Below, piece after piece: positions 4,969 through 41,946 of a DNA stretch of 64,000 nucleotides. The DNA lies in NCBI GenBank assembly GCA_029261895.1, contig JAJDAK010000067.1, positions 12,541 to 76,540 on the forward strand, written 5' to 3'. Position 1 is the first letter of the stretch, and the number at the start of each line of letters is the position of its first letter. Source of the DNA: Deltaproteobacteria bacterium. GTDB lineage: Bacteria; Myxococcota_A; UBA9160; SZUA-336. The notes beneath the pieces were generated by a model. That model did no database searches. It saw only the letters and a program-made list of their open reading frames with translations, and was not told where the DNA came from. A program made the translations under genes and the position numbers.

Positions 4969-5057
4969 ACAGCATGCCCTCCAGAAGCTCATCCGGGCTT
5001 AACGCCGGAGGACGGTCACCCCGCACTTCGATCGAGGGTACGGGTTCCCATTTTGGA

Positions 5058-5912
5058 GTGCAAGCACTATGCTCCTCGACCGTGATCGAGATTTTCGTCC
5101 TCGGATGGCAGCTTTTTCTACGCGACTTTCGTACTCGCTACCGCCAAGCCTACCTGGGTTACGTCTGGGCTTTTGCTCGGATTGTTTTGACCGGCGGCCC
5201 CATCATCATGGTAGGAAATCAGTTCGGCTTGGGAGAAGCCGACCCGACGGTCGACTACATTCCGTTTGCGTTCGCCGGCACGTTCTTTTTTCAGGTTTTC
5301 TGGGATGGCCTCGTGATGCCTCAATGGATCGGCCGACGGATGCGCGTCATTATGCGAGATATTCCGATCCCTAGCTCGGCTGTGCTCGTCGCTGCAGCGT
5401 GTTACACGGGGTTTAACTCGTTGCTATCCGGGATCGTCCTAACCGTGTTGCTCGTGGTCTTTGACGCGTCAATCGCAGCCACATTCCCACTCATCCTCGT
5501 GAGCTTCCCGGTGGTCATGCTGGCAGGCATCGCCGTCGGAGCGTTCATTTTACCCGTGACTTTCGTCTATCTCGACATCCGCTACGCGCTGACCTTCATT
5601 GCGCCGGTCGTGATGTTCAGCACACCGATATTCTACGTCTCACCCGAGACCGGATTCCTCGCCACAGTAAACACTTGGAACCCACTCACCTATCTGATCA
5701 ACACGCCGAGGGACTGGCTCTTCGCTGGCTTTACCGGGGACGAGCCCCTCTTCGCAGCCATCATCGTATTCGTCTTCATACTGCTGGCAATCGCGTTGCT
5801 GTTTTTGCGACGCGGACTCCCGATCGCACTCGAGCAACTCATCCGCCCTCAGGGTTCGGGCGAGGATCCAAGTCCGATCAATGATCCTCTGGCTCATCCG
5901 GCGGGTAGATAG
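5058..5912 (+). CDS. ABC-2 type (KpsM/Wzm/TagG-like) polysaccharide export permease. Start is uncertain, GTG at 5058 or 5082.
   Basis: It carries the FLRDFRTRYRQAYLGYVWAF motif typical of ABC-2 Wzm/KpsM permeases, followed by about six hydrophobic segments. The ATG-ORF start at 4974 would overlap the divergent ATPase. Confidence 0.65.
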   Translation: MQALCSSTVIEIFVLGWQLFLRDFRTRYRQAYLGYVWAFARIVLTGGPIIMVGNQFGLGEADPTVDYIPFAFAGTFFFQVFWDGLVMPQWIGRRMRVIMRDIPIPSSAVLVAAACYTGFNSLLSGIVLTVLLVVFDASIAATFPLILVSFPVVMLAGIAVGAFILPVTFVYLDIRYALTFIAPVVMFSTPIFYVSPETGFLATVNTWNPLTYLINTPRDWLFAGFTGDEPLFAAIIVFVFILLAIALLFLRRGLPIALEQLIRPQGSGEDPSPINDPLAHPAGR

Positions 5913-7488
5913 CATTTCGAACCCGATCCCGGAGCTCAACCAACAACGCCCGGGCGCGCTTCCGGACAATGCGAAGGGGCCGCGTGAGTCGACGCTGTAC
6001 GCGGTGAGCATCGACGCCCGCCTTCAACGCGAAGGCGACGTTGGCACCGATCGCCAGCGGAAATAGCAAGGGGATGAGTGCGGGGGTCCACGCGGGTCGC
6101 GGTGAACGCGGTACCGGCTGAAGACTTCCCGTTTCCTCAACGACGTCCGCCATTACTGTAGCCGCCGGTGTATCCAACCCTTGAGGGCGCACATAACCAG
6201 AGACGAAGCGCAGACTCTTCTCGTCGGTCTTTGACTCGGTTGCCAACGCCGAACTCAAGTCGGCAATGTGGCGGTCCATGTCGTGCGAAACATGCAGCAG
6301 CCCGCCGTGAAAATGCAGCAGATGCTGGAAGTGAATCGTCTCGACCTGCGACGCACCTAAATCCTGGCGTAGGAGCGTGAAGACGGGTCGCCCGATGATC
6401 GCGGATTCAATCAAGCCGCTCGTGTTCAACCCGATCACTGCATGACTGTGGTACATGGAGTCGTAGTAGTTCGCGCTCGAGGCTGAGTCGATGGGATTCG
6501 CGCCATGACGCGGCCAAATGCTCACGTTCTCGAAACGACCTAGATCGAATGTCTCCCATTGCGCCGCGTTTTGAGGATGGGGTCGGATCAGGATGCCAAC
6601 CTCGTTCAAATCGATTTTTCCGCAGTCACGCAACGTATGCAGCCACTCATCCACAAATTCCCACTCACGCGGGGCAATGAACATCGATGAAGCAAGGTAG
6701 AGCAAATACGGTCGGTCGCTGCGCAAACCCACTTCGCTACAGAATGCGGCTCGATTCGTACTGGGCTCCGCACCGAACCAACGGTCATAGCCGGGGGCAC
6801 CCGTGAGTTTGATGCGCTCCATGGGAACTTGATGCAGGCGGATCGCCTCTTCACGCTGAATTTCATTCCAAACCGCGACCCGGTCCGGAACTTCGTGAAT
6901 CTGTCCTTTGGTCGTTAGATGATCCCAACTCCCGATGCAGAGCAAGCTGGGCAACCCGCGACGACGAGCCGTGCGTACGAGATCCACCTGTTGTGAGCCG
7001 AAGTACAATAAGGGCGTCGTGATCAATACATCGGGCTTATGCGCCTCAATAAAAGCGTCGACCGCACCACTGATCGGAACCGCGCGCTCCAGCGTCTTCA
7101 ACAACGTACCGATCCAACGTCGACCCGTGGAACCTCGGAAGATACCAAAGCTGAGTACCTTCAGCGTCCAACCGGGCAGATGGGATGCTGCACGCGCGCG
7201 GAGCCGCGGGGTGTCGGCGAAACTCGGTTCTAAATAGCGGAGGTAATCGATACAGAGACGAATCGCGCGAGCCAACGCACGCCACATTCCGCTGCTGTAC
7301 CGCGGCTGATCCACGATGGAAACCGAGGTCAAGTCCAGCGCCAGTCGGTCCGCGATTTGACGCTCGTCGGGCTTGCCTTTGCGCTCCGCAAAAAGCAGCA
7401 CCTCATGGCCGCGTTCCGCTAGCGTGCGAACCGTGGTTTCGAAATTGCGCAGGAAGCCGAAATGGGCGGTGAAGAAGATGATCCTCAT
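5878..7488 (-). CDS. TagF/KpsC-KpsS-like GT-B family protein, paralog C (536 aa)
   Basis: It is collinear with paralogs A and B, sharing ITTPLLYFGSQQVDL, GSWDHLTTKG and IRPHPQN..GLNTSGLIESAIIGRPVFTL. It is convergent with the permease, with a 35-nt overlap. Confidence 0.65.
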   Translation of the reverse strand: MRIIFFTAHFGFLRNFETTVRTLAERGHEVLLFAERKGKPDERQIADRLALDLTSVSIVDQPRYSSGMWRALARAIRLCIDYLRYLEPSFADTPRLRARAASHLPGWTLKVLSFGIFRGSTGRRWIGTLLKTLERAVPISGAVDAFIEAHKPDVLITTPLLYFGSQQVDLVRTARRRGLPSLLCIGSWDHLTTKGQIHEVPDRVAVWNEIQREEAIRLHQVPMERIKLTGAPGYDRWFGAEPSTNRAAFCSEVGLRSDRPYLLYLASSMFIAPREWEFVDEWLHTLRDCGKIDLNEVGILIRPHPQNAAQWETFDLGRFENVSIWPRHGANPIDSASSANYYDSMYHSHAVIGLNTSGLIESAIIGRPVFTLLRQDLGASQVETIHFQHLLHFHGGLLHVSHDMDRHIADLSSALATESKTDEKSLRFVSGYVRPQGLDTPAATVMADVVEETGSLQPVPRSPRPAWTPALIPLLFPLAIGANVAFALKAGVDAHRVQRRLTRPLRIVRKRARALLVELRDRVRNAIYPPDEPEDH

Positions 7489-7658: not shown

Positions 7659-8573
7659 ATGGAACCTGAGCTCGACCTGAAATCGCTGGCCAGCCAGCGG
7701 GAGATCGCGGAGATCTTCGCGCCGTACGTACGTGAACGCATGCCCACGGCTTCGGAGGGCTGGATCCGGCTTGCAGAATCGCGCGCGAATAAAAAGAAGA
7801 AGGCCTTGGGGAAGAAGCGCGGGCCGGTGGACCGCACGTCAAAGCTCCTATCACCGCTCGACCCGTCGCTCGGAGATTTGGATCGCGCACGCGAGTGGTT
7901 TTCTCTCAAACTGAGTCCGGAAGGTAAACCCGTCCCCTGTGAGTGGGGCGATGAAGGTCTGATGGCCAAAGGCGTGGGCACCGCCCGCGTGCAACTGTTT
8001 TTGCTGCTTCGGGCGATCGAAGCCCTGCAGCCCGAGAACATTCTGGAAGTTGGATCGGGAAGCGGCATCAACCTCTTCGTTTTGGCCACGCGCTTTCCAT
8101 CCGTCCGCTGCTCGGGACTTGAGCTCGAGCCAGATTCCGTCGCGCGGGCCAAAGCGATCACGCAAGATCCGATGCTGCCTGAGGCTCTTTGTCAGTTTTC
8201 TCCGCTGCCACTCGATACGAACTCGGCCCATACCCGCATCCAGTTCCACCACGGGAATGCTGCCGCCCTGCCGTTCGCCGACGGCTCATTCGATGTTTCA
8301 TTCACCCGGCTCGCTCTCGAACAAATGCAGGACGTTCGTGACCAAGCGCTCACCGAGCTGCGCCGTGTTTCCCGAAAATATGTGGTGATGATTGAGTCCT
8401 TCCGCGACTGGAATGACTCGGGGATTCGGCGCGATTACATACGGTCGAAGAATTATTTTGATGCGTCACTCGAGGACTTGAATCGCTACGGACTCGAACC
8501 GATTCTGGCCTTCAATGACTTTCCGTCCAAGCTGACGCTTAAGCCCGGGATCGTCATTGCGCGTGTACGTTAA
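7659..8573 (+). CDS. Class I SAM-dependent methyltransferase
   Basis: Motif I is ILEVGSGSGINL and the acidic/motif II region is LELEPD...FADGSFDVSF. Confidence 0.7.
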   Translation: MEPELDLKSLASQREIAEIFAPYVRERMPTASEGWIRLAESRANKKKKALGKKRGPVDRTSKLLSPLDPSLGDLDRAREWFSLKLSPEGKPVPCEWGDEGLMAKGVGTARVQLFLLLRAIEALQPENILEVGSGSGINLFVLATRFPSVRCSGLELEPDSVARAKAITQDPMLPEALCQFSPLPLDTNSAHTRIQFHHGNAAALPFADGSFDVSFTRLALEQMQDVRDQALTELRRVSRKYVVMIESFRDWNDSGIRRDYIRSKNYFDASLEDLNRYGLEPILAFNDFPSKLTLKPGIVIARVR

Positions 8574-8593: not shown

Positions 8594-9535
8594 ATGTTTG
8601 AAAAAATTAACTCGCGAATTCGCAAACGCTTAAACTTTCGCCCAAAGACGAAACCGCCACAGCCAGTAGCAGTTACCGTACAAACACCCAGCCCGGCTGA
8701 GCTTGCTCGACTCTCCAAAGAATTCAATTTAGAACGGATCACACAGCATGTGCACGAACGAATGGCGGCGAGCAAAGTCATTGAAGAACCTGGCCCTCAT
8801 CTAATCGTAGATCATTTACTTCCCAACGACTTCTATCAAAAGCTCGTTGATGCCGTGCCACCCTCGACATATTTCACGGGCGGAGACAACGTCAGGCTAA
8901 AATGCCGGATGAGTACACCCGACCTGCCCCAAGAGACACGAACACTTTGGGGGTTCATGAGCTACGTCGTATGCCCCCAAGTGATTCAACCAGCGACGCA
9001 AGCAAAATTCGCCGCGTATTTTGACGACTTCTACGTTCAGGTCTTCGGCAAGGACATGGTTCGGGATGGCCGCACACTGCCTCGCTCGGTTTCTGATCAG
9101 CGCTTCTTACTTGGACGCCCCGGTTACAAACTCAAGCCACATATGGATCGCAAGCCCGTCTTACTCACGCATCTCTTGTACCTGCCGAAAGACCCCGGCA
9201 GCGATGAGAGATTCGGGACACAACTCTTTAAGGTCGACCGCGAATTCGTGGCCCGTTACGTCGAGACCTACTATCCGGGAAACGATGGCATGCGTTGCGA
9301 ATACCTCAAGAGCATGCCGTATCGCTGGAACACCATGGCAACGTTGATGAATTCGCGCGTCGTGCATGGGGCCGATATTCCCGCCGACCAAGCTCCGCCC
9401 ACCTTAGAGCGGCGAGCGTTTCAATTCTACGTCAGTTTGGATCCCGAACCGCTTGAGGAGTTTGTCGATACCCTGCCCGAAGAACTCCGTACGCCTTGGT
9501 TTGCAGAACGCACATCACTTGCGACGCCGCTTTAG
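8594..9535 (+). CDS. Hypothetical protein, possibly a 2OG/Fe oxygenase-like fold
   Basis: An ORF of 313 aa with plausible codon usage. An HMD ... VVHGAD pattern weakly resembles an HxD...H facial triad. No firm family call. Confidence 0.35.
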   Translation: MFEKINSRIRKRLNFRPKTKPPQPVAVTVQTPSPAELARLSKEFNLERITQHVHERMAASKVIEEPGPHLIVDHLLPNDFYQKLVDAVPPSTYFTGGDNVRLKCRMSTPDLPQETRTLWGFMSYVVCPQVIQPATQAKFAAYFDDFYVQVFGKDMVRDGRTLPRSVSDQRFLLGRPGYKLKPHMDRKPVLLTHLLYLPKDPGSDERFGTQLFKVDREFVARYVETYYPGNDGMRCEYLKSMPYRWNTMATLMNSRVVHGADIPADQAPPTLERRAFQFYVSLDPEPLEEFVDTLPEELRTPWFAERTSLATPL

Positions 9536-10513
9536 AAATTTCTTCCGAGAGCGTCGGTAATAACTAGCCAAGTCACGCAGCGGTCCGTGGCTATACGCTT
9601 TTGCAAAACGAAGCGGCGCTTCCAATCGATGGCGCAAGTAGAGGCGCACCAACGTCGAGAACAAGGCGTCGGGATCATCCGCACGGATCGCCCTCGCCGG
9701 ATTCGGGGTCGCGGGCTTCTGGCCGACAACAAGCAGGTGCTGCACGCTCGACCATCGATCCACGTGATTGGCATACATAATTTTAAAACCGGCTTTCTCC
9801 ACGAAGGCCCGAGTCGAACCGAGCGTCATATGCTGAAAATGCGCGATGGCTGAGTCACCCGAAAGGCTGAAATGCTTGCCGTACGGCCTTGGTCGCGTGA
9901 TGTCTTTCTCGGACACCAGCACCAGACCACCGGGGTTAAGACGCTCATAGCAATCCCGAAGCAGCTTCGTCGGCGAGGGAGAATGCGATGGTACGTGGAT
10001 TGTAAGCATCCCGATGAAGTCGAACTTCCCGGGGATCGTACCCAATAGGTCATTCATGGAGCGCGTATAAAACTGCTCGGAACTAAAATGATTCCTCGCG
10101 AAAGCGATGTTGGCTTCAAATGGATCTACTCCATGTACCTCCGCACCCATCTCAGCAACGATTTCCAAAACAGGCCCACTGCGCGATCGCACTTCAAGCC
10201 ACTTCTTGCCTTGAACGTCTCCGAAACGTTTCACCAGGTCCTCGACGTAGGGGCGAAGCTTCTGAACTCGTTTGTGTAGTTTTTCTGCGGTTACGTCCTT
10301 GGCCCCAGTGGCTTGAGCCCCGGGATCGGAAACGAAACCATCACGTAGCCACGCTTCTAGTGCAGCAGCCGTCTGCCGCGGGTTCGTATACACCAGACCG
10401 CAGTCTCGGCAGATGACCACGGTGTGTGGACGCGTGATGAAACTTGGAAGCGCATGGTAGTCATCGCTTCCACACAAGTCGCAAGCACAGGTTTCACGAT
10501 CGGTTCGCGTCAT
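9515..10513 (-). CDS. SAM-dependent methyltransferase with an N-terminal Cys4 zinc-ribbon
   Basis: An N-terminal CxxC..CxxC pattern (CDLCGS...CRDCG) is followed by VLEIVAEMGAEVHGVDP and LNPGGLVLV class I methyltransferase motifs. Confidence 0.65.
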   Translation of the reverse strand: MTRTDRETCACDLCGSDDYHALPSFITRPHTVVICRDCGLVYTNPRQTAAALEAWLRDGFVSDPGAQATGAKDVTAEKLHKRVQKLRPYVEDLVKRFGDVQGKKWLEVRSRSGPVLEIVAEMGAEVHGVDPFEANIAFARNHFSSEQFYTRSMNDLLGTIPGKFDFIGMLTIHVPSHSPSPTKLLRDCYERLNPGGLVLVSEKDITRPRPYGKHFSLSGDSAIAHFQHMTLGSTRAFVEKAGFKIMYANHVDRWSSVQHLLVVGQKPATPNPARAIRADDPDALFSTLVRLYLRHRLEAPLRFAKAYSHGPLRDLASYYRRSRKKFLKRRRK

Positions 10514-11507: not shown

Positions 11508-11519
11508 AAACCTTTCGCA

Positions 11520-12398
11520 TTATTCACCCGCCAAAACCGCGCGCTGAACCCGACTCAATTGCGCATCTGCAAGAGCGCCAAGCGGTGCACCCTGACGATA
11601 GTCGGTCGGCACGGTAAACGCGAAGGGCGTCAAGTACTGCACCATCAAAACCACCCGCGGGGTCGAGCCGGGCGAGACCCTCGAGCCGTAGTGGAAGCAG
11701 CGGCTCGAGTCGAAGAGACAGACGGTTCCCGGTGGCCCGGTCACAACCTCAGGCGAACGCTCCTCTCGGGCCTCGTCTATCACCGAGTCGGGAATGCGTT
11801 TGGGATAACGGTAGTTAATCCGTGCTCGAATCCGTTCGGATTCCTTCGCAGGAATCAAAGTAAGCGGACCGTTTTCAGGTCCAATATCACTGCAATAGAC
11901 GAAGGCCTTTACCTGCGCTTTATCGTGGGCATCACAGTGAAAAAGCTGGCTGCTCCAAGGCTCCGTATCGCTGGGCTCAGACAGGAAAACTTTGATATTG
12001 GCGAGAATCGGTACCATTCCAAGGTAGCGGCTGACCGCACTGAGAATCTCGGGATTCAGGGCGAAACGAAGAATCGGCGAGTCGAGACTGAGCAGCGCGG
12101 GATCGAGCCGATTCAGCAGGAAAGTCTTGCGGGTTGGCTTATGGGTGGGGTCGTGGAACGTGGTCCGGACCATGGTCTGAGCCATGACCGCGACTTCTGC
12201 GGCTTCCGGAATGCGGTCGTACGCTAGAGTCGCAATTCCGGTCGATTGCGGAATACGGAACGTGGGGCGTGGAAGCGCCCATGTGGCCAGTTGTCGCTGC
12301 ACGTAAGTCGTGGGACGCCTCAACCGTCGAGCCAGCGCATAGAGTCTTCGGCGCCCTTCACGTTGGTTAATGAAATCTTTCTTGATGTCGATCGCCAT
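11520..12398 (-). CDS. Phytanoyl-CoA dioxygenase (PhyH)-like 2OG/Fe(II) oxygenase
   Basis: It carries FHCDAHD (HxD) and a distal CFHYGSRVSPG histidine with LTLIPAKES. The overlapping plus-strand ORF 11106..12227 is R-rich and looks like antisense noise. Confidence 0.5.
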   Translation of the reverse strand: MAIDIKKDFINQREGRRRLYALARRLRRPTTYVQRQLATWALPRPTFRIPQSTGIATLAYDRIPEAAEVAVMAQTMVRTTFHDPTHKPTRKTFLLNRLDPALLSLDSPILRFALNPEILSAVSRYLGMVPILANIKVFLSEPSDTEPWSSQLFHCDAHDKAQVKAFVYCSDIGPENGPLTLIPAKESERIRARINYRYPKRIPDSVIDEAREERSPEVVTGPPGTVCLFDSSRCFHYGSRVSPGSTPRVVLMVQYLTPFAFTVPTDYRQGAPLGALADAQLSRVQRAVLAGE

Positions 12399-12554
12399 GC
12401 AACCACCAAGGGAGGAGGATTCGCTGACACTATACTGGAGCGGCCGACAAAATCACCGTTGCACACAGCCGTGTCGGCCATCCTTGACAGAGCTCCCTCG
12501 ACGGGCTGGAATACGCGCTTCCGACGGTGAAGACGGTCGGAGGCGGGGGGGAGT

Positions 12555-13658
12555 TTGATCGTTCAGTTTGAAGAGCTGCATCGCTATCGCGGTGAAGTCG
12601 CGATGGTCGATGGGGCGTTCGATCCGCTGCACTACGGTCATATCCGCTACTTCGCCGAAGCGGCAAAGCTCGGGAGCCCGGTTCTGTGCAATCTGGCTCC
12701 AGACACTTACGTATCAGCGAAACACGCACCGCTGCTACCTGCCGAGCAGCGGAGCGAGGTGATAGACGCACTTCGCCACATCGACTACACGCATCTCAAC
12801 GCCTATGACACCGAGGCGGTTCTTGAAGAACTTCGGCCCAAGTATTACGTAAAAGGCTCGGACTGGAAGAGCAAGTTGCCACCCGCTCAAGTGCAAATCT
12901 GCGCCAACCACGGCACGGAGATCGTGTATTTGGATACCGTGCTGGATTCTTCTACCAAGTTGCTCGCATCTTGGCTCGACGAGCGCAGCGATGCGTCATC
13001 ACTCGCGCGCTTTGAACGCTACGCCCAGGATCAAGCGCGAATCGGAGCAGCGCATTACGACGCTGAATACTTCACCACTGATTGGCGCGATGATGGCAAC
13101 TGCTACACCATCGATGCACGACGTGAGATCGAAGGCAAGAATCCAGCACTGATCAAAGAGATTTTCGAACCGCAGCGGGTTTTAGACCTGGGCTGCGGTC
13201 CCGGCTCTCTGATGTTTCTGCTGCAGGAGCAAGGCATCGTCGCGGATGGAGTCGACTTCAGTCCGGGATGCGTCAAGCTCGCACCGCAGGAAGTTCGTGA
13301 GCGCATTATTACCGCGCCGGTGACCGCACCACCGGTTCCCGACAACGCTTATGACCTGGTGATTTGTCGCGAGGTTTTCGAGCACCTGACGATTCTCGAG
13401 GTTCAGCAAGCCGTTGAGCAGATCGCGCGCGTGACATCTAAGTTTGTGTACCTCACGACTCGCTTCCATCCAGAACCACGCGACTTGCTCGACGTCACCA
13501 CACAGTTCGATGTCGATCCCACGCATATTACGCTGCTCAACCAGGACTTCCTTCGCTTGCTCTTCGTGATGCAGGGACTACGACGCCGCAAGGATCTGGA
13601 GCAGCGCATGGACTGGCTCAACAAAGGTCGTGTGCTGGTCTACGAAAAAGAGGCCTAG
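12555..13658 (+). CDS. Bifunctional protein: a TagD-like nucleotidyltransferase (CTP:glycerol-3-phosphate cytidylyltransferase family) fused to a C-terminal class I SAM methyltransferase
   Basis: The N-terminus reads VDGAFDPLHYGHIRYFAEAAKLG, compared with TagD YGTFDLLHWGHIKLLERAKQLG, and YVKGSDW compared with TagD MGDDWEGKF. The C-terminus reads VLDLGCGPGSL...DGVDFS...YDLVICREVFEHL. It starts with TTG and is preceded by a G-rich ribosome-binding site. Confidence 0.65.
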   Translation: MIVQFEELHRYRGEVAMVDGAFDPLHYGHIRYFAEAAKLGSPVLCNLAPDTYVSAKHAPLLPAEQRSEVIDALRHIDYTHLNAYDTEAVLEELRPKYYVKGSDWKSKLPPAQVQICANHGTEIVYLDTVLDSSTKLLASWLDERSDASSLARFERYAQDQARIGAAHYDAEYFTTDWRDDGNCYTIDARREIEGKNPALIKEIFEPQRVLDLGCGPGSLMFLLQEQGIVADGVDFSPGCVKLAPQEVRERIITAPVTAPPVPDNAYDLVICREVFEHLTILEVQQAVEQIARVTSKFVYLTTRFHPEPRDLLDVTTQFDVDPTHITLLNQDFLRLLFVMQGLRRRKDLEQRMDWLNKGRVLVYEKEA

Positions 13659-14604
13659 CGTGGACCCCAGGCAGCGATCATTGGACTGCGTCGTTGGTTA
13701 TCACCTGAATCCGCATACTTGCGGCATCGCCAAGTTCAACCTGGTGCTAGCGCGGCAGCTGCAGGTACCGATTCATGGACTCGCCGACCCGGCCGTACGT
13801 GATCATCCTCGGATTCTGCTTTCGATCAAAACGGAGGAATTCTCCGAGGCTGCGCTCCACCTACTCACGCGTTTTCTCGACGAGCTCAAGCCACAACAAG
13901 AGCTTCAACTCTTCCTCCACGCCTATGCCGATACACCACTCGAACGGCGTTTTCTCGAGCGCGCCGAGCGAGTTTATTGCGGCAATTCCGAGCTCGCGGG
14001 TCGCCTTCGGCCTCACCATCGCCAAGTCGTCGAAGCCTGGTGCCCGGGTTCATTTCTCGAGACTCAGCGCTTTGAGCCATCCGAGCTCACCGTGCTGACA
14101 TTTGGGATGGCCCATAAAGTGCGCGCTTCTCACTTTGAAAAGCTTCAAACCCTATTGGAAGCGACGGGCAAGTCATACAGCCTCTTCGTCTCTACAGCGC
14201 TGCACGAGGGCACCACCTTCGAGGGTAGTTTCGCCAAGGCTTTCGCCCAGATTCAGGAAATCTTCCGAGGCCAAGCCTATTTCCTAGGCTATCTATCGGA
14301 TGCAGGTGTCTACAACTACCTGCTCGATACGACCTATTTTGCCGCATTCTTTGAAAAAGGCGTGCGCGAGAACAACACCAGCGTCAATTCGGCGATGGAA
14401 TGCGGTGCCGTCGTTATCACCAATCTGGACGACCTGTCTCCGGCCACCTACCGGGGCGGTCGAAACCTGATCGATATCGCGACATGCGAGCAGTTACCGA
14501 CGAAAACCGAGGAATTGCAGGAAATTTCGGCAGGAGCGCGACAGAGCGCCGACGAATTTGGCTGGAAGCGGCTGGTGGATCGACTCGCGGGACCCATGTA
14601 CTAG
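13630..14604 (+). CDS. Hypothetical protein, possibly a glycosyltransferase-like C-terminal domain
   Basis: A 324-aa ORF tightly packed in the plus-strand operon, overlapping the upstream stop by 29 nt. No confident motif. Confidence 0.35.
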   Translation: MCWSTKKRPSVDPRQRSLDCVVGYHLNPHTCGIAKFNLVLARQLQVPIHGLADPAVRDHPRILLSIKTEEFSEAALHLLTRFLDELKPQQELQLFLHAYADTPLERRFLERAERVYCGNSELAGRLRPHHRQVVEAWCPGSFLETQRFEPSELTVLTFGMAHKVRASHFEKLQTLLEATGKSYSLFVSTALHEGTTFEGSFAKAFAQIQEIFRGQAYFLGYLSDAGVYNYLLDTTYFAAFFEKGVRENNTSVNSAMECGAVVITNLDDLSPATYRGGRNLIDIATCEQLPTKTEELQEISAGARQSADEFGWKRLVDRLAGPMY

Positions 14605-14672: not shown

Positions 14673-15722
14673 ATGGCTCGTGAGCTCACGATCGGTGGCT
14701 TTCGTATCGACGACGACAGCGACTGTTTCATCATTGCCGAGGTAGGACACAATCACCAAGGCGATATCGAGAAATGCAAAGAACTCTTCCTAGCCGCCAA
14801 GGAATGTGGTTGCCACGCGGTTAAGCTTCAAAAACGAAGCAACCGCACGCTCTTCACCCGCGATATGTATGAGAGCGCGTATGACAACGAAAACAGCTAC
14901 GGCGACACCTACGGTAGCCATCGAGAAGCACTCGAATTTGGCTGGGACGAGTATCAGGAGCTGAAGCGTTATTGCGCGGAGATCCAGATCATCTTCTTCG
15001 CCACGGCATTTGACTTCGAAAGCGCCGATTTTCTGATGAAGCTCGACGTTCCCGCATTCAAGATCGCATCCGGTGACCTCACGAATCTCCCGCTGATCAA
15101 GTACGTGGCGGGATTCGGTCGCCCAGTAGTGATGAGTACCGGCGGCGGCACGATGGAGGACGTTCAACGCGCCTATGACGCGGCCATGCCAATCAACCCG
15201 CAGATCACCATTTTGCAATGTACCGCGGGCTATCCGCCGGATTTTGACCAACTCAATCTGCGCACGATCGAGACTTTTCGAGAGGCCTTCCCCAATATTG
15301 TGATCGGTCTCTCGGCGCATGACAGCGGGATCGCGATGGCACCCGCGGCTTATGTGCTCGGCGCACGAATCCTCGAAAAGCACTTCACCTTGAATCGCGC
15401 CTGGAAGGGCACCGACCATGCGTTCTCCTTGGAACGACCGGGAATGCGGCGCTTGGTTCGAGACCTTCAGCGCACACGAATCGCCCTCGGTGACGGCCAG
15501 AAGCGCCAATACCCGACGGAGAAAAAGCCCTTATTCAAGATGGCAAAGAAACTTGTCGCGGCGCGTGATCTCGCGGTTGGACACCAGCTTACGCGCGAGG
15601 ACATTGCAATTCGTTCCCCGAACGACGGACTTCCCCCGTACGAACTCGAAAACGTCATCGGCAAAGTGCTGAAGCGTTCACTCACGACCGACGAGAATCT
15701 CGGTCATGAGGATTTAGAATAA
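14673..15722 (+). CDS. NeuB-family nonulosonic/sialic acid synthase (PEP-condensing, NeuB/PseI/LegI-like)
   Basis: IIAEVGHNHQGDIEKCKELFLAAKECGCHAVKLQKRS is compared with NeuB IIAEIGCNHNG..A..AGADAVKFQ. The start is taken at MARELTIGG, preceded by GGGGGAGGG. The ORF-track start at 14400 would overlap the previous gene. Confidence 0.75.
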   Translation: MARELTIGGFRIDDDSDCFIIAEVGHNHQGDIEKCKELFLAAKECGCHAVKLQKRSNRTLFTRDMYESAYDNENSYGDTYGSHREALEFGWDEYQELKRYCAEIQIIFFATAFDFESADFLMKLDVPAFKIASGDLTNLPLIKYVAGFGRPVVMSTGGGTMEDVQRAYDAAMPINPQITILQCTAGYPPDFDQLNLRTIETFREAFPNIVIGLSAHDSGIAMAPAAYVLGARILEKHFTLNRAWKGTDHAFSLERPGMRRLVRDLQRTRIALGDGQKRQYPTEKKPLFKMAKKLVAARDLAVGHQLTREDIAIRSPNDGLPPYELENVIGKVLKRSLTTDENLGHEDLE

Positions 15723-15745
15723 CGGGCGAAGCCGAGCGAGGCTTC

Positions 15746-16564
15746 ATGAACGACAATCTATTCAGTCTTCGCGGCCGACCCATCGTGATCACCGGTGGTC
15801 TGGGACAGCTAGGGCTGCAATTCACGAAAACGCTGTTGGAGCGCGGCGCACGCGTCGCGATTTTTGACCTCGAAGTCGAGGACGATCGGATAAAAACCGC
15901 GCTCGGGCACCGCCCCTCCGAGAGCGAATTGCTAACGCTGAGCGTTGACGTCACCAAACGTATCTCGATCGAGCGCGCACTCGACCAAGTGCGCAAGCAT
16001 TGGTATACCCCGCTGGGGCTGGTGAACAACGCCGCATTGGACTCGCCCCCGGGCGCGGGCGCTGCTGAAAACGGTCCTTTTGAAAATTACCCCGAGAATT
16101 CTTGGGACCGCGTGATGGAGGTCAACACCAAAGGCGTGTTCCTCTGCTCCCAAGTGATTGGCGGCGCGATGGCGGAAGCCGGGCGGGGATCCATCGTCAG
16201 CATCGCGTCCATCTATGGCTTGGTCTCACCAGACCAGAGTCTCTATGAGTATCGACGCCAGCGCGGGGAAGAGTTCTATAAGCCCGCCGCATACGCGGCA
16301 TCGAAATCCGCTCTGCTCAATTTGACGCGATACATGGCGACCTACTGGGCGCCACGAGGCGTCCGCGCCAACACATTGACTCTCGGGGGTGTGTTCAATG
16401 ATCAAGACGAAGAATTCCTGGAGCGCTATCACGCTCGCGTCCCACTCGGACGCATGGCTCAGCCAGAGGACTACAACGGCGCGCTGGTCTTTCTGCTATC
16501 CGACGCGTCTTCGTATATGACCGGTTCAAATCTCATCATCGACGGTGGCTGGACCGCTTGGTAA
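15746..16564 (+). CDS. Short-chain dehydrogenase/reductase (SDR)
   Basis: ITGGLGQLGLQF is the TGxxxGxG motif. NNAA and the Y-x3-K motif YAASKSAL are present. Confidence 0.75.
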   Translation: MNDNLFSLRGRPIVITGGLGQLGLQFTKTLLERGARVAIFDLEVEDDRIKTALGHRPSESELLTLSVDVTKRISIERALDQVRKHWYTPLGLVNNAALDSPPGAGAAENGPFENYPENSWDRVMEVNTKGVFLCSQVIGGAMAEAGRGSIVSIASIYGLVSPDQSLYEYRRQRGEEFYKPAAYAASKSALLNLTRYMATYWAPRGVRANTLTLGGVFNDQDEEFLERYHARVPLGRMAQPEDYNGALVFLLSDASSYMTGSNLIIDGGWTAW

Positions 16565-18045
16565 GGAACACGATGCCTGAATTGCCTTTCCCGCAAGAAA
16601 TTCCCAATTGGATCGAAGGGAAGGAAACGTCCGCCCTTTCCGGCGAGCGGCTGGATAAGTTTTCGCCTGCCGACGGACGCTTGCTTTGCCGCCTCACAGC
16701 GTCGAACGCCCAGGACGTCGAAGTCGCCATCGCTGCCGCACGTGCGGCGGCACCCAGTTGGGCACAAACCTCGGCCGTCACGCGCGGTCAGATCCTACAC
16801 AATATCGTGATGGGCCTTGAGAAAGAACGCGAAGCCGTGGCCCGGACGGTCGCCCTGGAAACAGGAAAGTCGATCAGCGAGGCCCAAGGCGAAACCGGCG
16901 CTGCCATCGCGCAAGGACTCTTCATGTCGGGGGAAGGCCAACGACTCTTCGGCCGGACCATCCCCAGCGGAGGGGTAAATCGGATTCAAATGACCGTACG
17001 CCAACCACGCGGTGTTGCGGGATTGATCATCGCGGCCAACACGCCGATCGCGAACGTGGCTTGGAAAGTCTTTCCGGCATTAATTTGCGGCAATACCGCG
17101 GTGCTCAAAGCGGCCGAAGACACACCCGCGACCGCATGGCTTTTTGCAAAGATCGCGCATGAGGCCGGGTTACCGGCCGGTGTCTTGAATGTAATTCAAG
17201 GAAGTGGCCCCGCGGCAGGTGCTCCATTGGTCGCGCATGCCGACGTGGATGTCGTGAGCTTCACCGGGTCCACCGCTGTGGGCCGTCAGATCGCACGCAT
17301 CGCGGGTAAAAGACTTGCTCATGTCTCGTTGGAACTCGGTGGCAAAAACCCATTGGTGGTCTGCGATGATGCCGATCTTGAAAACGCGGTGCGCTGGGCC
17401 GCACTATCTGCATTTAGCAACGCGGGGCAACGCTGCGCTGCTGGAAGTCGTCTGATTGTTTTCGACGAAGTTTACGCAGCGTTTCGTGACGCACTCGTGA
17501 CGCACACGCAAACGCTGCGGGTAGGCTCCGCCGAAGGCGATGATCTCGGACCCGTGATCAACGAGGGCCAGCTTGGCAAAATGCTTTACGCGATCCGTAT
17601 CGCTAAGTCCGAAGGTGCCAAAGTGATCCTTGGTGGCCATCGAATTACCAATGACGCACGCGCGGCGGGTTACTACATGACACCGACCCTGGTCGAAAAC
17701 GTTAAACCCGACGGCAAGCTATCCACGTTGGAAATTTTCGGCCCGATCGCTGTTCTCTATCGCGTAGCCAATCTAGATGAAGCGTTGGCGTTGGCGAATA
17801 ACTCTCCGTACGGCCTTACCGCATCGATTCATACCAAGAATATCGACCGTGCGCTTCGCTTCGCGCAACATGTCGAAGCTGGAGTCGCGATGGTGAACGC
17901 CGGCACCTACGGTAGCGAGCCCCATATGCCCTTTGGGGGCCGAAAACAATCGGGGAATGGCACACGCGAGCCGGGCACCGAAGCACTCGACGTCTATTCC
18001 GAACTCAAGAACATCTGCATCAATTTCAACCCGGAGGCCAATTAG
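16558..18045 (+). CDS. NAD(P)-dependent aldehyde dehydrogenase
   Basis: LELGGKNP and FSNAGQRCAAGSR carry the catalytic Cys and Glu motifs of the ALDH family. Confidence 0.8.
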   Translation: MVRNTMPELPFPQEIPNWIEGKETSALSGERLDKFSPADGRLLCRLTASNAQDVEVAIAAARAAAPSWAQTSAVTRGQILHNIVMGLEKEREAVARTVALETGKSISEAQGETGAAIAQGLFMSGEGQRLFGRTIPSGGVNRIQMTVRQPRGVAGLIIAANTPIANVAWKVFPALICGNTAVLKAAEDTPATAWLFAKIAHEAGLPAGVLNVIQGSGPAAGAPLVAHADVDVVSFTGSTAVGRQIARIAGKRLAHVSLELGGKNPLVVCDDADLENAVRWAALSAFSNAGQRCAAGSRLIVFDEVYAAFRDALVTHTQTLRVGSAEGDDLGPVINEGQLGKMLYAIRIAKSEGAKVILGGHRITNDARAAGYYMTPTLVENVKPDGKLSTLEIFGPIAVLYRVANLDEALALANNSPYGLTASIHTKNIDRALRFAQHVEAGVAMVNAGTYGSEPHMPFGGRKQSGNGTREPGTEALDVYSELKNICINFNPEAN

Positions 18046-18046
18046 A

Positions 18047-18808
18047 TTGGCACGAGCGGTCGCGCTGATACCTGCACGTTCGGGCTCAGAGCGCGTTCCG
18101 GACAAGAATATCCGCAAGCTCGGCGAGCATCCGCTAATCGCATATTCAATTGCAGCCGCACATGAGAGCAAAGTCTTCGACGCTGTTGTGGTTTCAACAG
18201 ACTCAAGTGCGTATGCCGAGGTTGCCAAATACTATGGCGCCGAGGTGCCTTTTCTGAGACCGTCTGAACTCGCGGGATCTCGTTCGCCCGACATCGAATG
18301 GGTCGAGCATATGCTCCGCTGTCTCGAATCAAGTGGTCGCGACTTCGATTGCTTCAGCATCCTGCGACCCACGAGTCCATTTCGTCGTGCGGAGACCATC
18401 CACAGGGCGTGGCAGCAATTCCTAGCGTTAGATGGAATCGACTCGATTCGTGCCGTCGAATTATGCAAACAACACCCGGGCAAAATGTGGCTCGTTCGTG
18501 GCGACAATATGGCACCGTTACTTCCATCTCCGGCCGACCCACCCTGGCATAGCTCGCAGTATCCCTCGCTGCCCGAGGTTCATGTACAGAACGCGAGTCT
18601 TGAAATCGCATGGTCGCGCGTCGTGCAACAGGGCCGCAGCATTGCCGGCGAGCGACTGGCGCCGTTCTTTACCAAGGATTTCGAAGGGTTCGATGTGAAC
18701 GATGAGGCCGATTGGTTTCACGCCGAGCGACTGCTCGCCGACGGAAGCGCGAGTCTTCCCCCCATACCTCAGACCCCTTATCCCAAGGAAATCCCGTGTC
18801 GGAACTGA
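18047..18808 (+). CDS. NeuA-like CMP-nonulosonic acid synthetase (acylneuraminate cytidylyltransferase family)
   Basis: ALIPARSGSERVPDKNIRKLGEHPLIAYSI is compared with NeuA AIIPARGGSKGIPRKNI..L.GKPLIAHTI. It starts with TTG 1 nt after the ALDH stop, with GGAGG upstream. Confidence 0.7.
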   Translation: MARAVALIPARSGSERVPDKNIRKLGEHPLIAYSIAAAHESKVFDAVVVSTDSSAYAEVAKYYGAEVPFLRPSELAGSRSPDIEWVEHMLRCLESSGRDFDCFSILRPTSPFRRAETIHRAWQQFLALDGIDSIRAVELCKQHPGKMWLVRGDNMAPLLPSPADPPWHSSQYPSLPEVHVQNASLEIAWSRVVQQGRSIAGERLAPFFTKDFEGFDVNDEADWFHAERLLADGSASLPPIPQTPYPKEIPCRN

Positions 18809-20685
18809 TCTACATTCCTGAAGACGAACTAAAGCGTGTGCGAGAACTCGGCAATAACACGGTGGATCGCACGGCGATCTTTGCCGATGTCTGCCGCATC
18901 AACACACTCTATATGATCGCGAATGCAGGCTCGGGGCATATCGGCAGCAGCTTCAGCAGCCTCGACATCGTTTCCCATCTGTTATTGAACGAAATGGATC
19001 CTGACCGCGACGTCTATTTCTCATCGAAGGGTCATGACGCACCCGGTTATTACGCAGCACTGATTGGCGCGGGCCAGCTCGAGTTCGAGTTGGTGCATCA
19101 GCTACGGCGGCTTGGCGGCTTACCCGGCCATCCGGATGTCTCCACACCTAATGTCGAGGCCAACACCGGCTCGCTCGGTATGGGAATTTCCAAAGCAAAG
19201 GGCATGGCGCTGGCCAACCGTGCGCACGGAAAACCCGGACAGACCTTCGTGATGACCGGGGATGGCGAACTTCAAGAAGGCCAGCTCTGGGAATCCTTAG
19301 CATCGGCCGCAAACCAGCAGATCGGTGAAATCACTGCGATTGTCGATCACAACAAGCTCCAATCCGATACCTACGTTTCTCACGTAAGCGACCTGGGCGA
19401 TCTCGAAGCGAAGTTTGCAAGTTTTGGCTGGGCAGTTGCGCGCTGCAACGGACATGACTTCCTTGCGCTCGCGGAAACTTTGCATTCGCTACGCGACGAT
19501 CCGCGTCCGGGCGTACTGATTGCCGATACGATCAAGGGACGCGGCGTTTCCTTTATGGAGCACCCGCGCTTCAAACCCGACGAACTCTACGCCTTCCACA
19601 GTGGCGCACCGAGCGTGGAGCATTATGAGAAAGCGCTTGCGGAGCTTTTGGATCGCACGAATGAACGCTTGTCCAATCTTGGGCTTGCGTCCCTGAACAC
19701 GCGGAGCCATGCGAGACCCAAGGCTCTCGCAGCCAAGCCCACTCAGAAATTGGTTGCCGCGTACGGCCGCGCGCTGGTTGAGCAGGGTCGACGGAACTCC
19801 GAACTGGTTGTACTCGACGGGGATTTGGTACTCGATACCGGATTGATTCCGTTTCGCGATGCCTTTCCCGACCGATTCTTTGAATGCGGCATCGCCGAAC
19901 AGGACATGGTCTCCCAAGCGAGTGGGATGGCGCTCAAAGGTTGGCTGCCCGCGGTGCATAGCTTTGCGTGTTTTCTGGCCGCGCGTCCCAACGAGCAGAT
20001 CTACAACGCGGCGACCGAAGGTCGCAAGATTCTCTACGTGGGTTCATTGGCTGGATTGCTGCCGGGAGGACCGGGGCATTCCCATCAGTCTGTACGCGAT
20101 ATTGCTGCACTCGCCGCGATGCCGGGTTTGATTCTGATTGAACCCGCGACCGAACGAGAAGTCGCCGCCGCGCTGGAATTCGCGCTGAATCAAACCGACG
20201 AAAGCGTTTACCTTCGACTCGTCACGGTACCCGTTGAAGTGTCGTTCGAGGTTCCCGACCTGCCACTCAAACTTGGCCACGGTCACTTGGTTCGAGATGG
20301 TAATGATGCGCTGCTGATCAGTTCGGGTCCGGTGATGCTCCGTGAAGCTATGCTTGCCGCAGAGAAGCTGCGAGACCAGTACGCGATCTCCCTGCGCATC
20401 ATGGATCTGCCCTGGCTGAATCGCATCGATGCCGATTGGCTCACAGAACAAACCCAAGGGTTCAAGCGTGTATTTACACTCGATAATCACTATTGGCTGG
20501 GCGGGCAGGGTCAATTGATCGCAAGCACGCTGGCCACAGCGGGAATCGGTGCAGGCCAACGCGTCGTTCCGTTTGCTGTGGAGAACGTGCCCGCATGTGG
20601 TACGGCGGATGAAGTCCTCCACGCGCATGGGCTGGACGCCGTGAGTCTTACCTCACGCATCGCGTCCGAACTCGGCGCTGCATGA
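18796..20685 (+). CDS. Transketolase-like TPP-dependent enzyme with the N-terminal TPP domain and the pyrimidine/C-terminal domains fused
   Basis: SGHIGSSFSSLDIV...KGHDAPGYYAALI matches the transketolase N domain. GIAEQDMVSQASGMALKG matches the pyrimidine-binding domain. It likely starts with GTG overlapping the NeuA-like stop. Confidence 0.65.
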   Translation: MSELIYIPEDELKRVRELGNNTVDRTAIFADVCRINTLYMIANAGSGHIGSSFSSLDIVSHLLLNEMDPDRDVYFSSKGHDAPGYYAALIGAGQLEFELVHQLRRLGGLPGHPDVSTPNVEANTGSLGMGISKAKGMALANRAHGKPGQTFVMTGDGELQEGQLWESLASAANQQIGEITAIVDHNKLQSDTYVSHVSDLGDLEAKFASFGWAVARCNGHDFLALAETLHSLRDDPRPGVLIADTIKGRGVSFMEHPRFKPDELYAFHSGAPSVEHYEKALAELLDRTNERLSNLGLASLNTRSHARPKALAAKPTQKLVAAYGRALVEQGRRNSELVVLDGDLVLDTGLIPFRDAFPDRFFECGIAEQDMVSQASGMALKGWLPAVHSFACFLAARPNEQIYNAATEGRKILYVGSLAGLLPGGPGHSHQSVRDIAALAAMPGLILIEPATEREVAAALEFALNQTDESVYLRLVTVPVEVSFEVPDLPLKLGHGHLVRDGNDALLISSGPVMLREAMLAAEKLRDQYAISLRIMDLPWLNRIDADWLTEQTQGFKRVFTLDNHYWLGGQGQLIASTLATAGIGAGQRVVPFAVENVPACGTADEVLHAHGLDAVSLTSRIASELGAA

Positions 20686-36292: not shown

Positions 36293-36479
36293 ACTGTTGG
36301 GAATTCTCACGATCGACGAGGGGTCGCCGTGAGTCCAAAGTTTCTGCAGGGGTCATGGTTCCAGTCTGTTGATAAAAAACATAACCAGGCTGCGGGTTTG
36401 GGTCAGTTATCCCAAAACTCACAGGCTCTCCTACTACTTCCTTATTATTAATCTTTAAAAGGAAGCAGGAGAAGAAGAG
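36284..36479. promoter_or_regulatory. Candidate oriC in the dnaA-dnaN intergenic region, with DnaA boxes and an AT-rich unwinding element
   Basis: TGTGGATAA is a perfect reverse DnaA box at 36284-36292, overlapping the dnaA stop. TGTTGATAA lies at 36367-36375 and TTATCCCAA at 36407-36415. The AT-rich stretch CTTATTATTAATCTTTAAAA lies at 36441-36460. Confidence 0.55.
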
Positions 36480-37586: not shown

Positions 37587-37587
37587 G

Positions 37588-37920: not shown

Positions 37921-38098
37921 AGTGTAACAGCACCAGTTAGCGGTACTTCCTCTGGCCTACTGCTCGGCGGTATGCGAAAAAACCTTTACAGTAGAAGTGT
38001 CGTTTCCGACACAGAAAAGTGCATGTATATCTACACAAAAATATGTCTATAGCTCGGGATAGCCGTCGCCGATCTAACAGCCCGAGATATACACCAAC

Positions 38099-39265: not shown

Positions 39266-39501
39266 CGTTGCTCTCAGCCTCGGGTAGAGATTCATGTCAT
39301 GGGTTGCTGGGCGCGAAAAAAGCGTGTCCCTTCACCTAGACCCTAGTCGCTGGTTAAGTTAGATTAGACAGCGATTTCAAGGCCTTGCGGGGCGATGCGA
39401 AGCAGGACGCCGGAGCGGAATCCCCCATAGGTAGGTCTCCCCCGATAGCTCAGTCTCAGTGCACCTGGTGCAGCCAGAATTATGCCCGATTGAGCGGATA
39501 G

Positions 39502-41946
<2,445 letters not shown>

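Follow-up and report, generated by a model that had tools for sequence, protein, structure and literature searches.

A widespread nucleotidyltransferase-methyltransferase fusion associated with ulosonic-acid glycan gene clusters

Introduction

Among the small nucleotidyltransferases, TagD and CCT carry an RTxGISTT motif, and HldE has a D-x-S-[ST]-T ending together with an extra 'P.E....G.E.V.L' segment, as does the family described here. The cytidylyltransferase domain of Fom1 acts on hydroxyethylphosphonate, and the CMP-linked product is later methylated; in fosfomycin biosynthesis this methylation is the work of a separate radical-SAM (S-adenosylmethionine) enzyme with a phosphonate substrate. 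In the Campylobacter legionaminic-acid pathway, a dedicated nucleotidyltransferase, PtmE, opens a separate GDP-GlcN pool (PMC5378307). Here we analysed 64,000 nucleotides of a Deltaproteobacteria bacterium assembly (Myxococcota_A, UBA9160, SZUA-336; GCA_029261895.1, contig JAJDAK010000067.1, positions 12,541 to 76,540; this whole stretch is called the window), in which one gene, here called CT-MT, encodes a nucleotidyltransferase (CT) fused to a class I SAM methyltransferase (MT). A preliminary description, made from the sequence of the window, had read the gene as a TagD-like cytidylyltransferase that couples a CDP-activated alcohol such as glycerol-phosphate to methylation, with an RfaE-II-like domain as the alternative. 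It had added that the architecture was not recognizable as a standard enzyme. This was fair, as no curated family covers the fusion, yet the architecture is common in metagenomes. Source annotations are generic ('cytidyltransferase-like protein', 'glycerol-3-phosphate cytidylyltransferase-like / SAM-dependent methyltransferase'), and full-text literature searches found no characterization of the CT-MT architecture or its cluster.

One continuous gene with two enzyme domains

As an undetected stop or frameshift between the two domains would speak against a fusion, a point already raised in the preliminary description, the frame of CT-MT matters. In the open reading frame (ORF) listing of the window, the gene is a single continuous ORF with zero internal stops, and none separates the domains (Table 1). 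Its TTG start appears correct, because 20 homologues share an invariant M1-I2 and a conserved N-terminus ('MIxxFxxL..YR..VAMVDG') and because GGAGG lies ∼12 nt upstream. The peptides on which the first description relied (DGAFDPLHYGHIRYFAEAAKLG, VKGSDW, VLDLGCGPGSL, DGVDFS and ICREVFEHL) are all present, and both enzyme types were found above their Pfam cut-offs in the one polypeptide: CTP_transf_like (PF01467) at residues 18-124 (E 3e-14; 53.8 bits, cut-off 21), and Methyltransf_11, Methyltransf_23 and Methyltransf_25 at residues ∼193-342 (57, 54.9 and 53.8 bits; E ∼1e-14 to 3e-15).

Alignment of 85 CT-MT sequences showed that H26, G28, H29, S132 and S133 of CT are invariant (the SST motif spans residues 132-134). 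The same holds for the GCGPG motif (213-217), D234, R272/E273/E276/H277, TTRF (301-304) and D321-P322-x-H324 of MT, and D231 is nearly invariant. The MT core thus displays acidic D231/D234, REVFEH (272-277), TTRFHP and DPTH motifs. In the lid that joins the domains, Q160, Y172, Y184, R189, R190 and E193 are invariant in the 85 sequences; homologue alignments list W177, R178 and N182 with these residues as invariant or near-invariant. As the motif residues are invariant, both domains look catalytically competent. An AlphaFold2 model built on the 85-sequence alignment has a mean predicted local distance difference test score (pLDDT) of 89.3 and two well-folded domains, a five-stranded Rossmann-like CT (strands 16-20, 43-47, 78-81, 97-101 and 122-126 with helices between, pLDDT mostly >90) and a seven-stranded class I methyltransferase. 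Neither a kinase domain (Pfam, NCBIfam) nor a long coiled coil (AlphaFold2 model) was found in CT-MT.

The MT domain resembles generic class I methyltransferases only. Phosphoethanolamine N-methyltransferases (PMT) matched it at E ∼4e-7 in the profile search and ∼6e-9 in Foldseek, no better than UbiG, ChlM or MitM. The top Foldseek match, to a two-domain plant PMT, was set aside as an alignment artefact (TM 0.34, rmsd 22). The methyltransferase domain of WbdD matched weakly in the PDB profile search (2e-4).

Fused, split and rearranged versions of the family

A search of 5.8 billion proteins with CT-MT matched 1976 clusters. The best 120 of these 1976 are ∼355-400 aa long (one is 643 aa) and 57-64% identical to the query, and nearly all have both Pfam domains. 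An exhaustive HMMER search of 50%-identity representatives yielded 101 clusters (E<=1e-30), 311 relatives came to light when one genome per species was scanned, and a protein identical to CT-MT is recorded from NCBI and Logan assemblies. In the one-genome-per-species scan the carriers were mainly Acidobacteriota (Vicinamibacterales); further carriers belong to Alphaproteobacteria, Actinomycetes, Planctomycetota, Chthoniobacterales, Chloroflexota and Nitrospinota, and include the cultured alphaproteobacteria Tistlia consotensis USBA 355 and Oricola nitratireducens NBU1457. With so many matches the fusion is far more than a chance event; it is a conserved and widespread family and not a one-off.

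CT and MT lie in different reading frames in about 25-29 of the 81 loci with CT-MT genes, with CT matching query residues 1-∼144 and MT residues ∼149-365. The break always falls at the linker. One locus (L075) has the reversed order, MT before CT, and the search of 50%-identity representatives also recovered CT (∼150 aa) and MT (∼230 aa) as proteins of their own. These split loci are genuine two-gene versions. Their existence could be taken to mean that CT-MT is itself two genes joined by a sequencing or assembly frameshift; however, the continuous frame aligns over its whole length, and with no gap in the linker region, to over 100 independent fused homologues that come from a range of phyla and assemblies. 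This rules out a frameshift or two-gene artefact, for which we see practically no chance.

The gene that follows CT-MT, w12, takes part in similar rearrangements. Two proteins, P0329 and P0346, are CT::w12 fusions in which the CT part is 49% identical and the w12 part 36% identical over its full length (E 1e-52). Both fusion genes (L088 1566-2258, L089 1172-1861) lie on short contigs, divergent from a DtxR/MntR-type metal-dependent repressor, and in L089 the 389 nt downstream of the fusion hold no coding sequence. With P0329 as the seed, a scan of metagenomes yielded 38 loci. A dozen of them had contiguous CT-w12 matches, mostly overlapping or adjacent genes without MT, three were CT-MT-w12, and in several CT was followed by one to three genes for PhyH-like dioxygenases and then by w12. 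The CT-MT-w12 and CT-PhyH-w12 loci thus define a recurring order, CT, then MT or PhyH, then w12. A transketolase gene often stands directly upstream of CT in these loci.

The 643-aa homologue, P0046 (L086/L087 10001-11932), was considered as a CT-MT-w12 triple fusion and rejected: it holds only the first half of w12 and its locus is full of transposases, so it is probably a degraded read-through or a decaying operon copy. After a second CT-MT copy, in an alphaproteobacterial metagenome-assembled genome (L085, the same as L045; 2885-10808), come a split w12, two genes for sulfotransferases, one for an FkbM-type methyltransferase and one for an ABC ATPase. No NeuB, the ulosonic-acid synthase discussed below, was found in the 10 kb downstream of this copy, and the contig ends 1.7 kb upstream of the gene.

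The nucleotidyltransferase domain is closest to the sugar-1-phosphate branch

The best NCBIfam match of the CT domain is RfaE domain II (TIGR02199; 69.6 bits, cut-off 181.5 not passed), followed by the generic cyt_tran_rel model. The TagD equivalog (TIGR01518) reaches 31.3 bits (cut-off 165.4, not passed) and archaeal pantetheine-phosphate adenylyltransferase (PPAT) ∼31 bits. CT is 34% identical to the adenylyltransferase domain of Escherichia coli HldE over 120 residues (E 6e-19), and its LDTVLDSST stretch (family consensus LDTVRDSST) lacks the arginine of the TagD/CCT motif at the aligned position. In a PDB profile search the matches were ECT (8.8e-13), TagD (1.2e-11), Burkholderia pseudomallei HldC (9.9e-11), a Thermoplasma RfaE-II-like protein (2.8e-9) and the Fom1 cytidylyltransferase domain (4e-9), and far weaker NMNAT (3.8e-5) and PPAT (1.2e-4).

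True membership of TagD or of HldE was discarded, as both equivalog cut-offs were missed, and identity as FAD (flavin adenine dinucleotide) synthetase, PPAT or NMNAT was ruled out on scores. From these comparisons we conclude that CT is probably a small phosphate-ester-activating enzyme closest to the sugar-1-phosphate (HldE) branch, with a substrate that homology does not fix. For the preliminary description this means that its general idea, an activated phosphate ester coupled to methylation, is supported and that its preference for TagD over FAD synthetase, PPAT and NMNAT was sound. Its specific TagD and CDP-glycerol reading gives way on the bit scores, the identity to HldE and the absent arginine. 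On the same three grounds its RfaE-II-like alternative fits better than TagD (69.6 against 31 bits), although the RfaE-II cut-off is not reached.

The partner protein w12

The GTG start of w12 lies 1 nt after the CT-MT stop, with AAGAGG within the 3' end of CT-MT. w12 belongs to a family of 718 database clusters and had no match in Pfam, NCBIfam or PDB sequences. Its AlphaFold2 model (pLDDT 90.5) is a compact GT-B fold, and among solved structures GT4 glycosyltransferases (BshA, MshA, sucrose-phosphate synthase, TarM and TreT; E ∼1e-10) come closest. A fusion protein also matched Glyco_trans_1_4 weakly. w12 could be either a transferase or a nucleoside diphosphate (NDP)-sugar hydrolase of the PseG kind. 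The Azospirillum pseI locus has no annotated pseG.

Gene context across related loci

In the window, CT-MT opens a + strand series of CT-MT, w12, NeuB2 (a divergent NeuB-family synthase), a short-chain dehydrogenase/reductase (SDR), aldehyde dehydrogenase, CT3 (a CMP-ulosonic-acid synthetase), transketolase and w18. NeuB2 scored 282 bits against the NeuB cut-off of 399 and 241 bits against the PseI cut-off of 340. The best match of the SDR is PRK09186, which we take to be the PtmA 'flagellin modification protein A' family. NeuB, a PtmA-like SDR, aldehyde dehydrogenase and a single-chain transketolase (14673-20685) make up a combination that is unusual in an ulosonic-acid operon.

All ORFs from 84 related loci were clustered de novo and the families counted per locus. 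CT-MT was present in 81 loci, a family here called U (245 members) in 73, NeuB in 60, w12 in 52, CT3 and the SDR in 49 each, an NDP-sugar epimerase/dehydratase (EPIM) in 38, transketolase in 34, aldehyde dehydrogenase in 32, a DegT aminotransferase in 23, a NanM-like O-methyltransferase in 21, NeuC in 19 and a hexapeptide acetyltransferase in 15. Antisense ORFs opposite conserved genes also formed clusters across loci (0% on the + strand). U proteins (500-970 aa, no Pfam model) typically occur in three to six tandem copies per locus. They have zero PDB sequence matches and match weakly GT4 N-domains and the Tannerella BFO_1060 glycosyltransferase family; BFO_1060/Tanf_01245 is a putative nonulosonic-acid transferase (PMC5378307).

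NeuB comes in two types, one followed by NeuC, which never adjoins CT-MT, and one followed by the SDR (NeuB2). Where the gene directly upstream of NeuB2 could be assigned, it was w12 in 24 loci, CT-MT in 11 and a member of the epimerase/Gmd family in 5. Alphaproteobacterial and planctomycete loci place a true GDP-mannose 4,6-dehydratase (Gmd; 443-455 bits, cut-off 415) between w12 and NeuB2. The split-gene Vicinamibacterales loci have the order EPIM-CT-MT-(hexapeptide acetyltransferase)-DegT...w12-NeuB2-SDR-aldehyde dehydrogenase-CT3-transketolase, and a separate, complete NeuB-NeuC-CT3 set lies upstream. In 17 loci EPIM, which is only partly HldD-like, shows translational coupling with CT. 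L082 carries LegB-like and LegC-like genes downstream of CT-MT. Neither a PseG or NeuC homologue nor another visible source of free aldose was found in window-type loci.

The two systems also occur apart. CT-MT and w12 stand without NeuB within 10 kb in six loci, and CT-PhyH-w12 stands in two (L102 and L108) beside a complete CT3-NeuB-NeuC set that has its own hydrolase. Conversely, the cultured Streptomyces sp. NBC_01237 carries NeuB2-SDR-transketolase (51%, 42% and 52% identity; L131 12001-15780) on a 1.6-Mb 'plasmid', with no CT, MT or w12 within 12 kb; therefore NeuB2 can get its substrate without CT-MT. This trio adjoins an alpha-aminoadipate-type aminotransferase and an RmlD-like reductase, a hint that the same alpha-keto-acid chemistry may be put to another use here.

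Further pathways were considered for the annotated loci and rejected. A MeOPN (O-methyl phosphoramidate)-type pathway (Cj1416 with Cj1419/20) was dropped, as genes like those for glutamine kinase, amidase or APS (adenosine 5'-phosphosulfate) kinase were not seen and the literature search gave nothing on the CT-MT family. Phosphonate decoration was dropped because no annotated locus has a phosphoenolpyruvate (PEP) mutase or phosphonopyruvate decarboxylase.

A proposed role and its alternatives

Our reading starts from a core shared by the different gene arrangements, in which CT produces an intermediate linked to an NDP, MT or PhyH modifies this intermediate and w12 receives the result. We consider this core probable, because CT is joined to MT, and elsewhere fused with w12 or overlapping it, because other tailoring enzymes take the position of MT, and because CT stands among NDP-sugar-modifying enzymes in clusters where no canonical sugar nucleotidyltransferase was found (no NTP_transferase or ManC homologue in any locus). 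We infer the sugar-1-phosphate class of the substrate, the nucleotide, methylation at the NDP-sugar stage and the role of w12 as a transferase. In this scheme, CT would condense a nucleoside triphosphate with a sugar-1-phosphate from housekeeping metabolism, most plausibly a manno-configured heptose or hexose, and the fused MT would methylate the nucleotide-linked sugar with SAM. The methylated NDP-sugar would be handed to the translationally coupled GT-B protein w12, which would most likely transfer it onto an ulosonic-acid-containing glycan. NeuB2 and CT3 would supply CMP-ulosonic acid, the U family and w18 would act as transferases and the ABC ATPase would serve export. As a full statement (CT makes the NDP-sugar, MT methylates it, w12 transfers it onto such a glycan) this is plausible, and we put it forward tentatively.

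Several observations count against this proposal. The assignment of the CT substrate class draws on relative similarity and gene context, with the RfaE-II and TagD cut-offs both missed, and ECT and TagD slightly outscore B. pseudomallei HldC in the PDB profile search. Genes that would supply the sugar are scarce: tblastn with E. coli proteins in the window and 127 loci gave zero matches for GmhA and the HldE kinase domain and one weak match for GmhB, and no locus has a homologue of ManB for mannose-1-phosphate supply. In w12, an invariant arginine (R236) and Ser/Ala at 244 replace the GT4 EX7E motif in a manual alignment, and at 314 aa the protein is small for a GT4 enzyme and would also fit a PseG-like hydrolase. 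The 11 loci with CT-MT directly before NeuB2 do so without w12. O-methylation of polysaccharide sugars usually takes place after transfer, and the relative orientation of the two active sites is undefined in the AlphaFold2 model, where it is not reliable because the predicted template modelling score (pTM) is 0.61.

The small size of w12 and its lack of EX7E would suit a role in precursor supply, in which CT makes an NDP-sugar, MT tailors it (in other loci PhyH, a dehydratase, an aminotransferase or an acetyltransferase), and w12 is a PseG/NeuC-like hydrolase that frees a methylated aldose, which NeuB2 would condense with PEP into a methylated ulosonic acid for activation by CT3. The genes directly before NeuB2, the NeuC-followed NeuB that is never beside CT-MT and the missing aldose source of window-type loci all fit such a pathway. 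The split-locus order also mirrors the Pse/Leg pathway, with a PseF-like CT3 and a PseC-like aminotransferase. In contrast, the nearest solved folds of w12 are GT4, with PseG and NeuC absent from the top 50, CT-PhyH-w12 lies beside NeuB-NeuC sets that already have a hydrolase, 11 loci go from CT-MT to NeuB2 without w12, six have CT-MT and w12 with no NeuB within 10 kb and the Streptomyces trio does without CT, MT and w12. On the strength of the GT4-like fold, the logic of fusing a donor-maker to a donor-user, the CT-PhyH-w12 loci and the Streptomyces trio, we favour w12 as a transferase and regard precursor supply as rather unlikely. A related extension, in which CT-MT/w12 channels a manno-heptose (seven carbons) or a different manno sugar into a NeuB-type synthase, would yield methylated, C10 or otherwise non-canonical CMP-ulosonic acids, with transketolase, aldehyde dehydrogenase and the SDR as part of such chemistry; a C10 acid would follow because a heptose-type nucleotidyltransferase would feed the synthase. 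In Magnetospirillum gryphiswaldense, mass spectrometry showed CMP-activated C10 'extended backbone' alpha-keto (ulosonic) acids with 14 Da spacing, with no genes assigned (bioRxiv 10.64898/2026.04.20.719630). We nevertheless hold this extension improbable, because the homology search with a Rhodospirillum-type query gave no named Magnetospirillum member of the CT-MT family, a result that does not refute a link, and because the loci hold no heptose-supply genes.

The ranking of ECT and TagD at the top of the PDB profile search, with a match to the Fom1 cytidylyltransferase domain, leads to a different substrate: CT could cytidylylate glycerol-3-phosphate, another polyol phosphate (possibly made by transketolase and the SDR) or phosphoethanolamine, MT could methylate it in a PMT-like N- or O-methylation, and w12 could be TagF-like and add a phosphodiester decoration to the glycan. 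Glycerol-3-phosphate requires no supply genes of its own, in keeping with the lack of such genes. PMT enzymes are among the best characterized matches of MT, an alkyl or aminoalkyl phosphate is arguably a more natural target than a sugar for a PhyH hydroxylase in the position of MT, the transketolase gene is often just 5' of CT, and the invariant arginine of w12 takes the position of the first glutamate of the GT4 EX7E in the manual alignment. However, the RfaE-II model scores twice as high as the TagD equivalog (31 of 165 bits), CT is 34% identical to the HldE domain, and the RTxGISTT arginine is absent. The MT matches are generic, with the top PMT match inflated by its two-domain alignment, genes for PEP mutase, ethanolamine kinase or LicD-like proteins were not seen in any annotated locus, and the recurrent neighbours of CT are NDP-sugar enzymes. 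No TagF/TagB (Glyphos_transf) match was found in the window cluster. We think a CDP-alcohol pathway quite unlikely. The chance is slighter still that CT acts on the product of NeuB2, with NeuB2 using a sugar phosphate, for example from transketolase, to form an ulosonic-acid omega-phosphate whose terminal phosphate CT converts into an NDP ester and whose acid MT methylates. The operon has no phosphatase, pattern-B loci have CT-MT-NeuB2-SDR without CT3 within 10 kb, and the matching solved PF01467 enzymes use phosphate or phosphonate substrates (glycerol-3-phosphate, phosphoethanolamine, heptose-1-phosphate and phosphopantetheine); but most loci, the window included, have a conventional CT3, CT-w12 pairs occur away from NeuB2, and we know of no precedent for such a reaction. 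It is equally improbable that MT adds a WbdD-like terminal methyl to a finished, ABC-exported polysaccharide while CT has a regulatory or binding function. An ABC ATPase and many glycosyltransferase-like genes in the cluster, the weak WbdD match of MT (2e-4) and the wealth of methyltransferases in these clusters, NanM-like and FkbM-like ones included, agree with it, whereas the invariant catalytic HxGH and SST motifs speak for genuine nucleotidyl transfer, a role of CT with w12 in its own right follows from the CT::w12 fusions and from CT-w12 pairs that lack MT, and the AlphaFold2 model predicts no coiled-coil or ruler domain.

Other features of the window

Upstream of CT-MT, and divergent from it, lies w10, whose relatives occur between CT and w12 elsewhere. 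A 373-aa ORF (11106-12227, +) antisense to w09 and w10 is probably a shadow ORF. At the other end of the operon, w18, a candidate ulosonic-acid transferase, is found again behind the transketolase gene of related loci. An Rfam scan found no riboswitch or other RNA family in the cluster, and the GC content, uniform at ∼55-59%, gave no hint of a foreign island. The remainder of the window holds dnaA, dnaN, gyrB, gyrA, yidC and the ATP synthase operon. As dnaA, dnaN, a methyl-accepting chemotaxis protein gene, gyrB and gyrA lie together at 34979-44433 (+) and the cumulative GC-skew minimum falls at ∼34-36 kb, the chromosomal origin of replication probably lies within the window. A DUF3604 protein (48247-50019, -; E 1e-165) is unrelated to CT-MT.

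Table 1. Coordinates of CT-MT, its domains and the surrounding genes (numbered from the first letter of the window).
Feature	Coordinates	Strand	Remarks
CT-MT fusion gene	12555..13658	+	367 aa; TTG start, TAG stop 13656-13658
CT (nucleotidyltransferase) domain	12555..12989	+	residues 1-145; from Pfam PF01467, invariant residues and fold
HxGH motif of CT	12630-12641	+	H26-Y-G-H29
Helical linker / N-terminal MT lid	12990..13169	+	residues ∼146-205 (∼133-204 in the AlphaFold2 model); lower pLDDT; split-gene versions break here
Class I SAM methyltransferase core	13170..13655	+	residues ∼206-367; from Pfam, invariant columns, Foldseek and PDB matches
GCGPG motif of MT	13191-13205	+	residues 213-217
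Sigma-70-like promoter match	12424..12453	+	weak, consensus match only; in the 156-nt divergent intergenic region 5' of CT-MT
w12	13660..14604	+	314 aa; GT-B (GT4-like) fold; no Pfam/NCBIfam family
NeuB2, divergent NeuB-family ulosonic-acid synthase	14673..15722	+	Pfam NeuB and SAF; ORF opens at 14400, likely start ∼14673
Classical SDR	15746..16564	+	best match PRK09186, then GolD/gluconate-5-dehydrogenase/KduD-like families
Aldehyde dehydrogenase	16558..18045	+	alpha-ketoglutaric-semialdehyde-dehydrogenase-like, below cut-off
CT3, CTP_transf_3 CMP-ulosonic-acid synthetase, PseF-like	17933..18808	+	127.6 bits, cut-off 205.7; true start probably ∼18059
Transketolase/DXS-like thiamine-diphosphate enzyme, single-chain	18712..20685	+	domain matches
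w18	20682..22391	+	569 aa; weak Capsule_synth (KpsC/KpsS beta-Kdo-transferase-like) match, E 0.015
w10, PhyH-like 2-oxoglutarate/Fe(II) dioxygenase	11520..12398	-	weak match
w08, class I methyltransferase	9515..10513	-	domain match
w06, class I methyltransferase	7659..8573	+	domain match
w05, U-family paralogue	5878..7488	-	no Pfam family; weak BFO_1060 glycosyltransferase and GT4 N-domain matches
w03, ABC-transporter ATPase	4144..4992	-	likely export component of the glycan cluster
w02, U-family paralogue	1564..4125	-	853 aa; homology to U family
w01, U-family paralogue	2..1738	-	abuts left end of window; gene may be incomplete

Discussion

If the proposed role is true, the CT-MT family is a self-contained unit for activating a sugar and then tailoring it, and a marker for surface-glycan clusters of a large, unexplored class that occurs in bacteria of soil and sea, such as Vicinamibacterales, Rhodospirillales and Planctomycetota. 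Such clusters join a divergent NeuB, transketolase and aldehyde dehydrogenase with at least three families for which Pfam and NCBIfam have no model (U, w12 and w18), and the substrate of the fusion would be an entry to their glycan structures, possibly to new methylated or chain-extended sialic-acid-like sugars. The natural series of CT-MT, CT + MT, CT::w12 and CT-PhyH-w12, with its fusions, fissions and swapped domains, is a clear example of how the order and fusion of genes can reflect the order of steps in a pathway.

Among described systems, domain II of HldE (RfaE), with HldC, is the best-scoring curated family for CT. The two share a small HIGH-motif nucleotidyltransferase fold and a common layout (GxFDxxHxGH ... 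RP/PLL..EQR ... VKGxD[YW] ... P.E....G.E.V.L ... SST), and in both the domain is half of a bifunctional nucleotide-sugar enzyme. However, CT-MT has a methyltransferase instead of a kinase, scores below the equivalog cut-off, comes without GmhA, kinase and GmhB genes and lies in ulosonic-acid glycan clusters and not in those for the lipopolysaccharide core. With TagD, and with ECT and CCT, CT has in common Pfam PF01467, the HxGH motif, PDB profile E-values similar to or better than that of HldC and, in a general sense, the activation of a phosphate ester for a downstream GT-B-type enzyme. The 'GxDWEG[KR]' stretch of CT also resembles that of TagD. CT differs from TagD in its HldE-type insertion before the last strand and in lacking the RTxGISTT arginine.

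The remaining parallels are functional or architectural. PtmE is an analogue of CT and not a homologue, as it has an unrelated NTP_transferase fold and is not known to be fused to a methyltransferase. The likeness lies in the split-type loci, where CT stands among LegB/PseC/NeuD-like genes, whereas CT feeding NeuB2 is here one of two live options. In Fom1, a PF01467 domain that matches CT in the profile search (4e-9) is likewise fused to a second enzyme, but PEP mutase and phosphonate genes were not found in annotated CT-MT loci. WbdD and enzymes of the GlmU/HldE type resemble CT-MT in fusing two catalytic domains for successive steps on one substrate of a polysaccharide pathway. In CT-MT, however, the partner domain is a nucleotidyltransferase and not a kinase or acetyltransferase, there is no coiled-coil ruler, and the evidence points to a soluble nucleotide-linked substrate.

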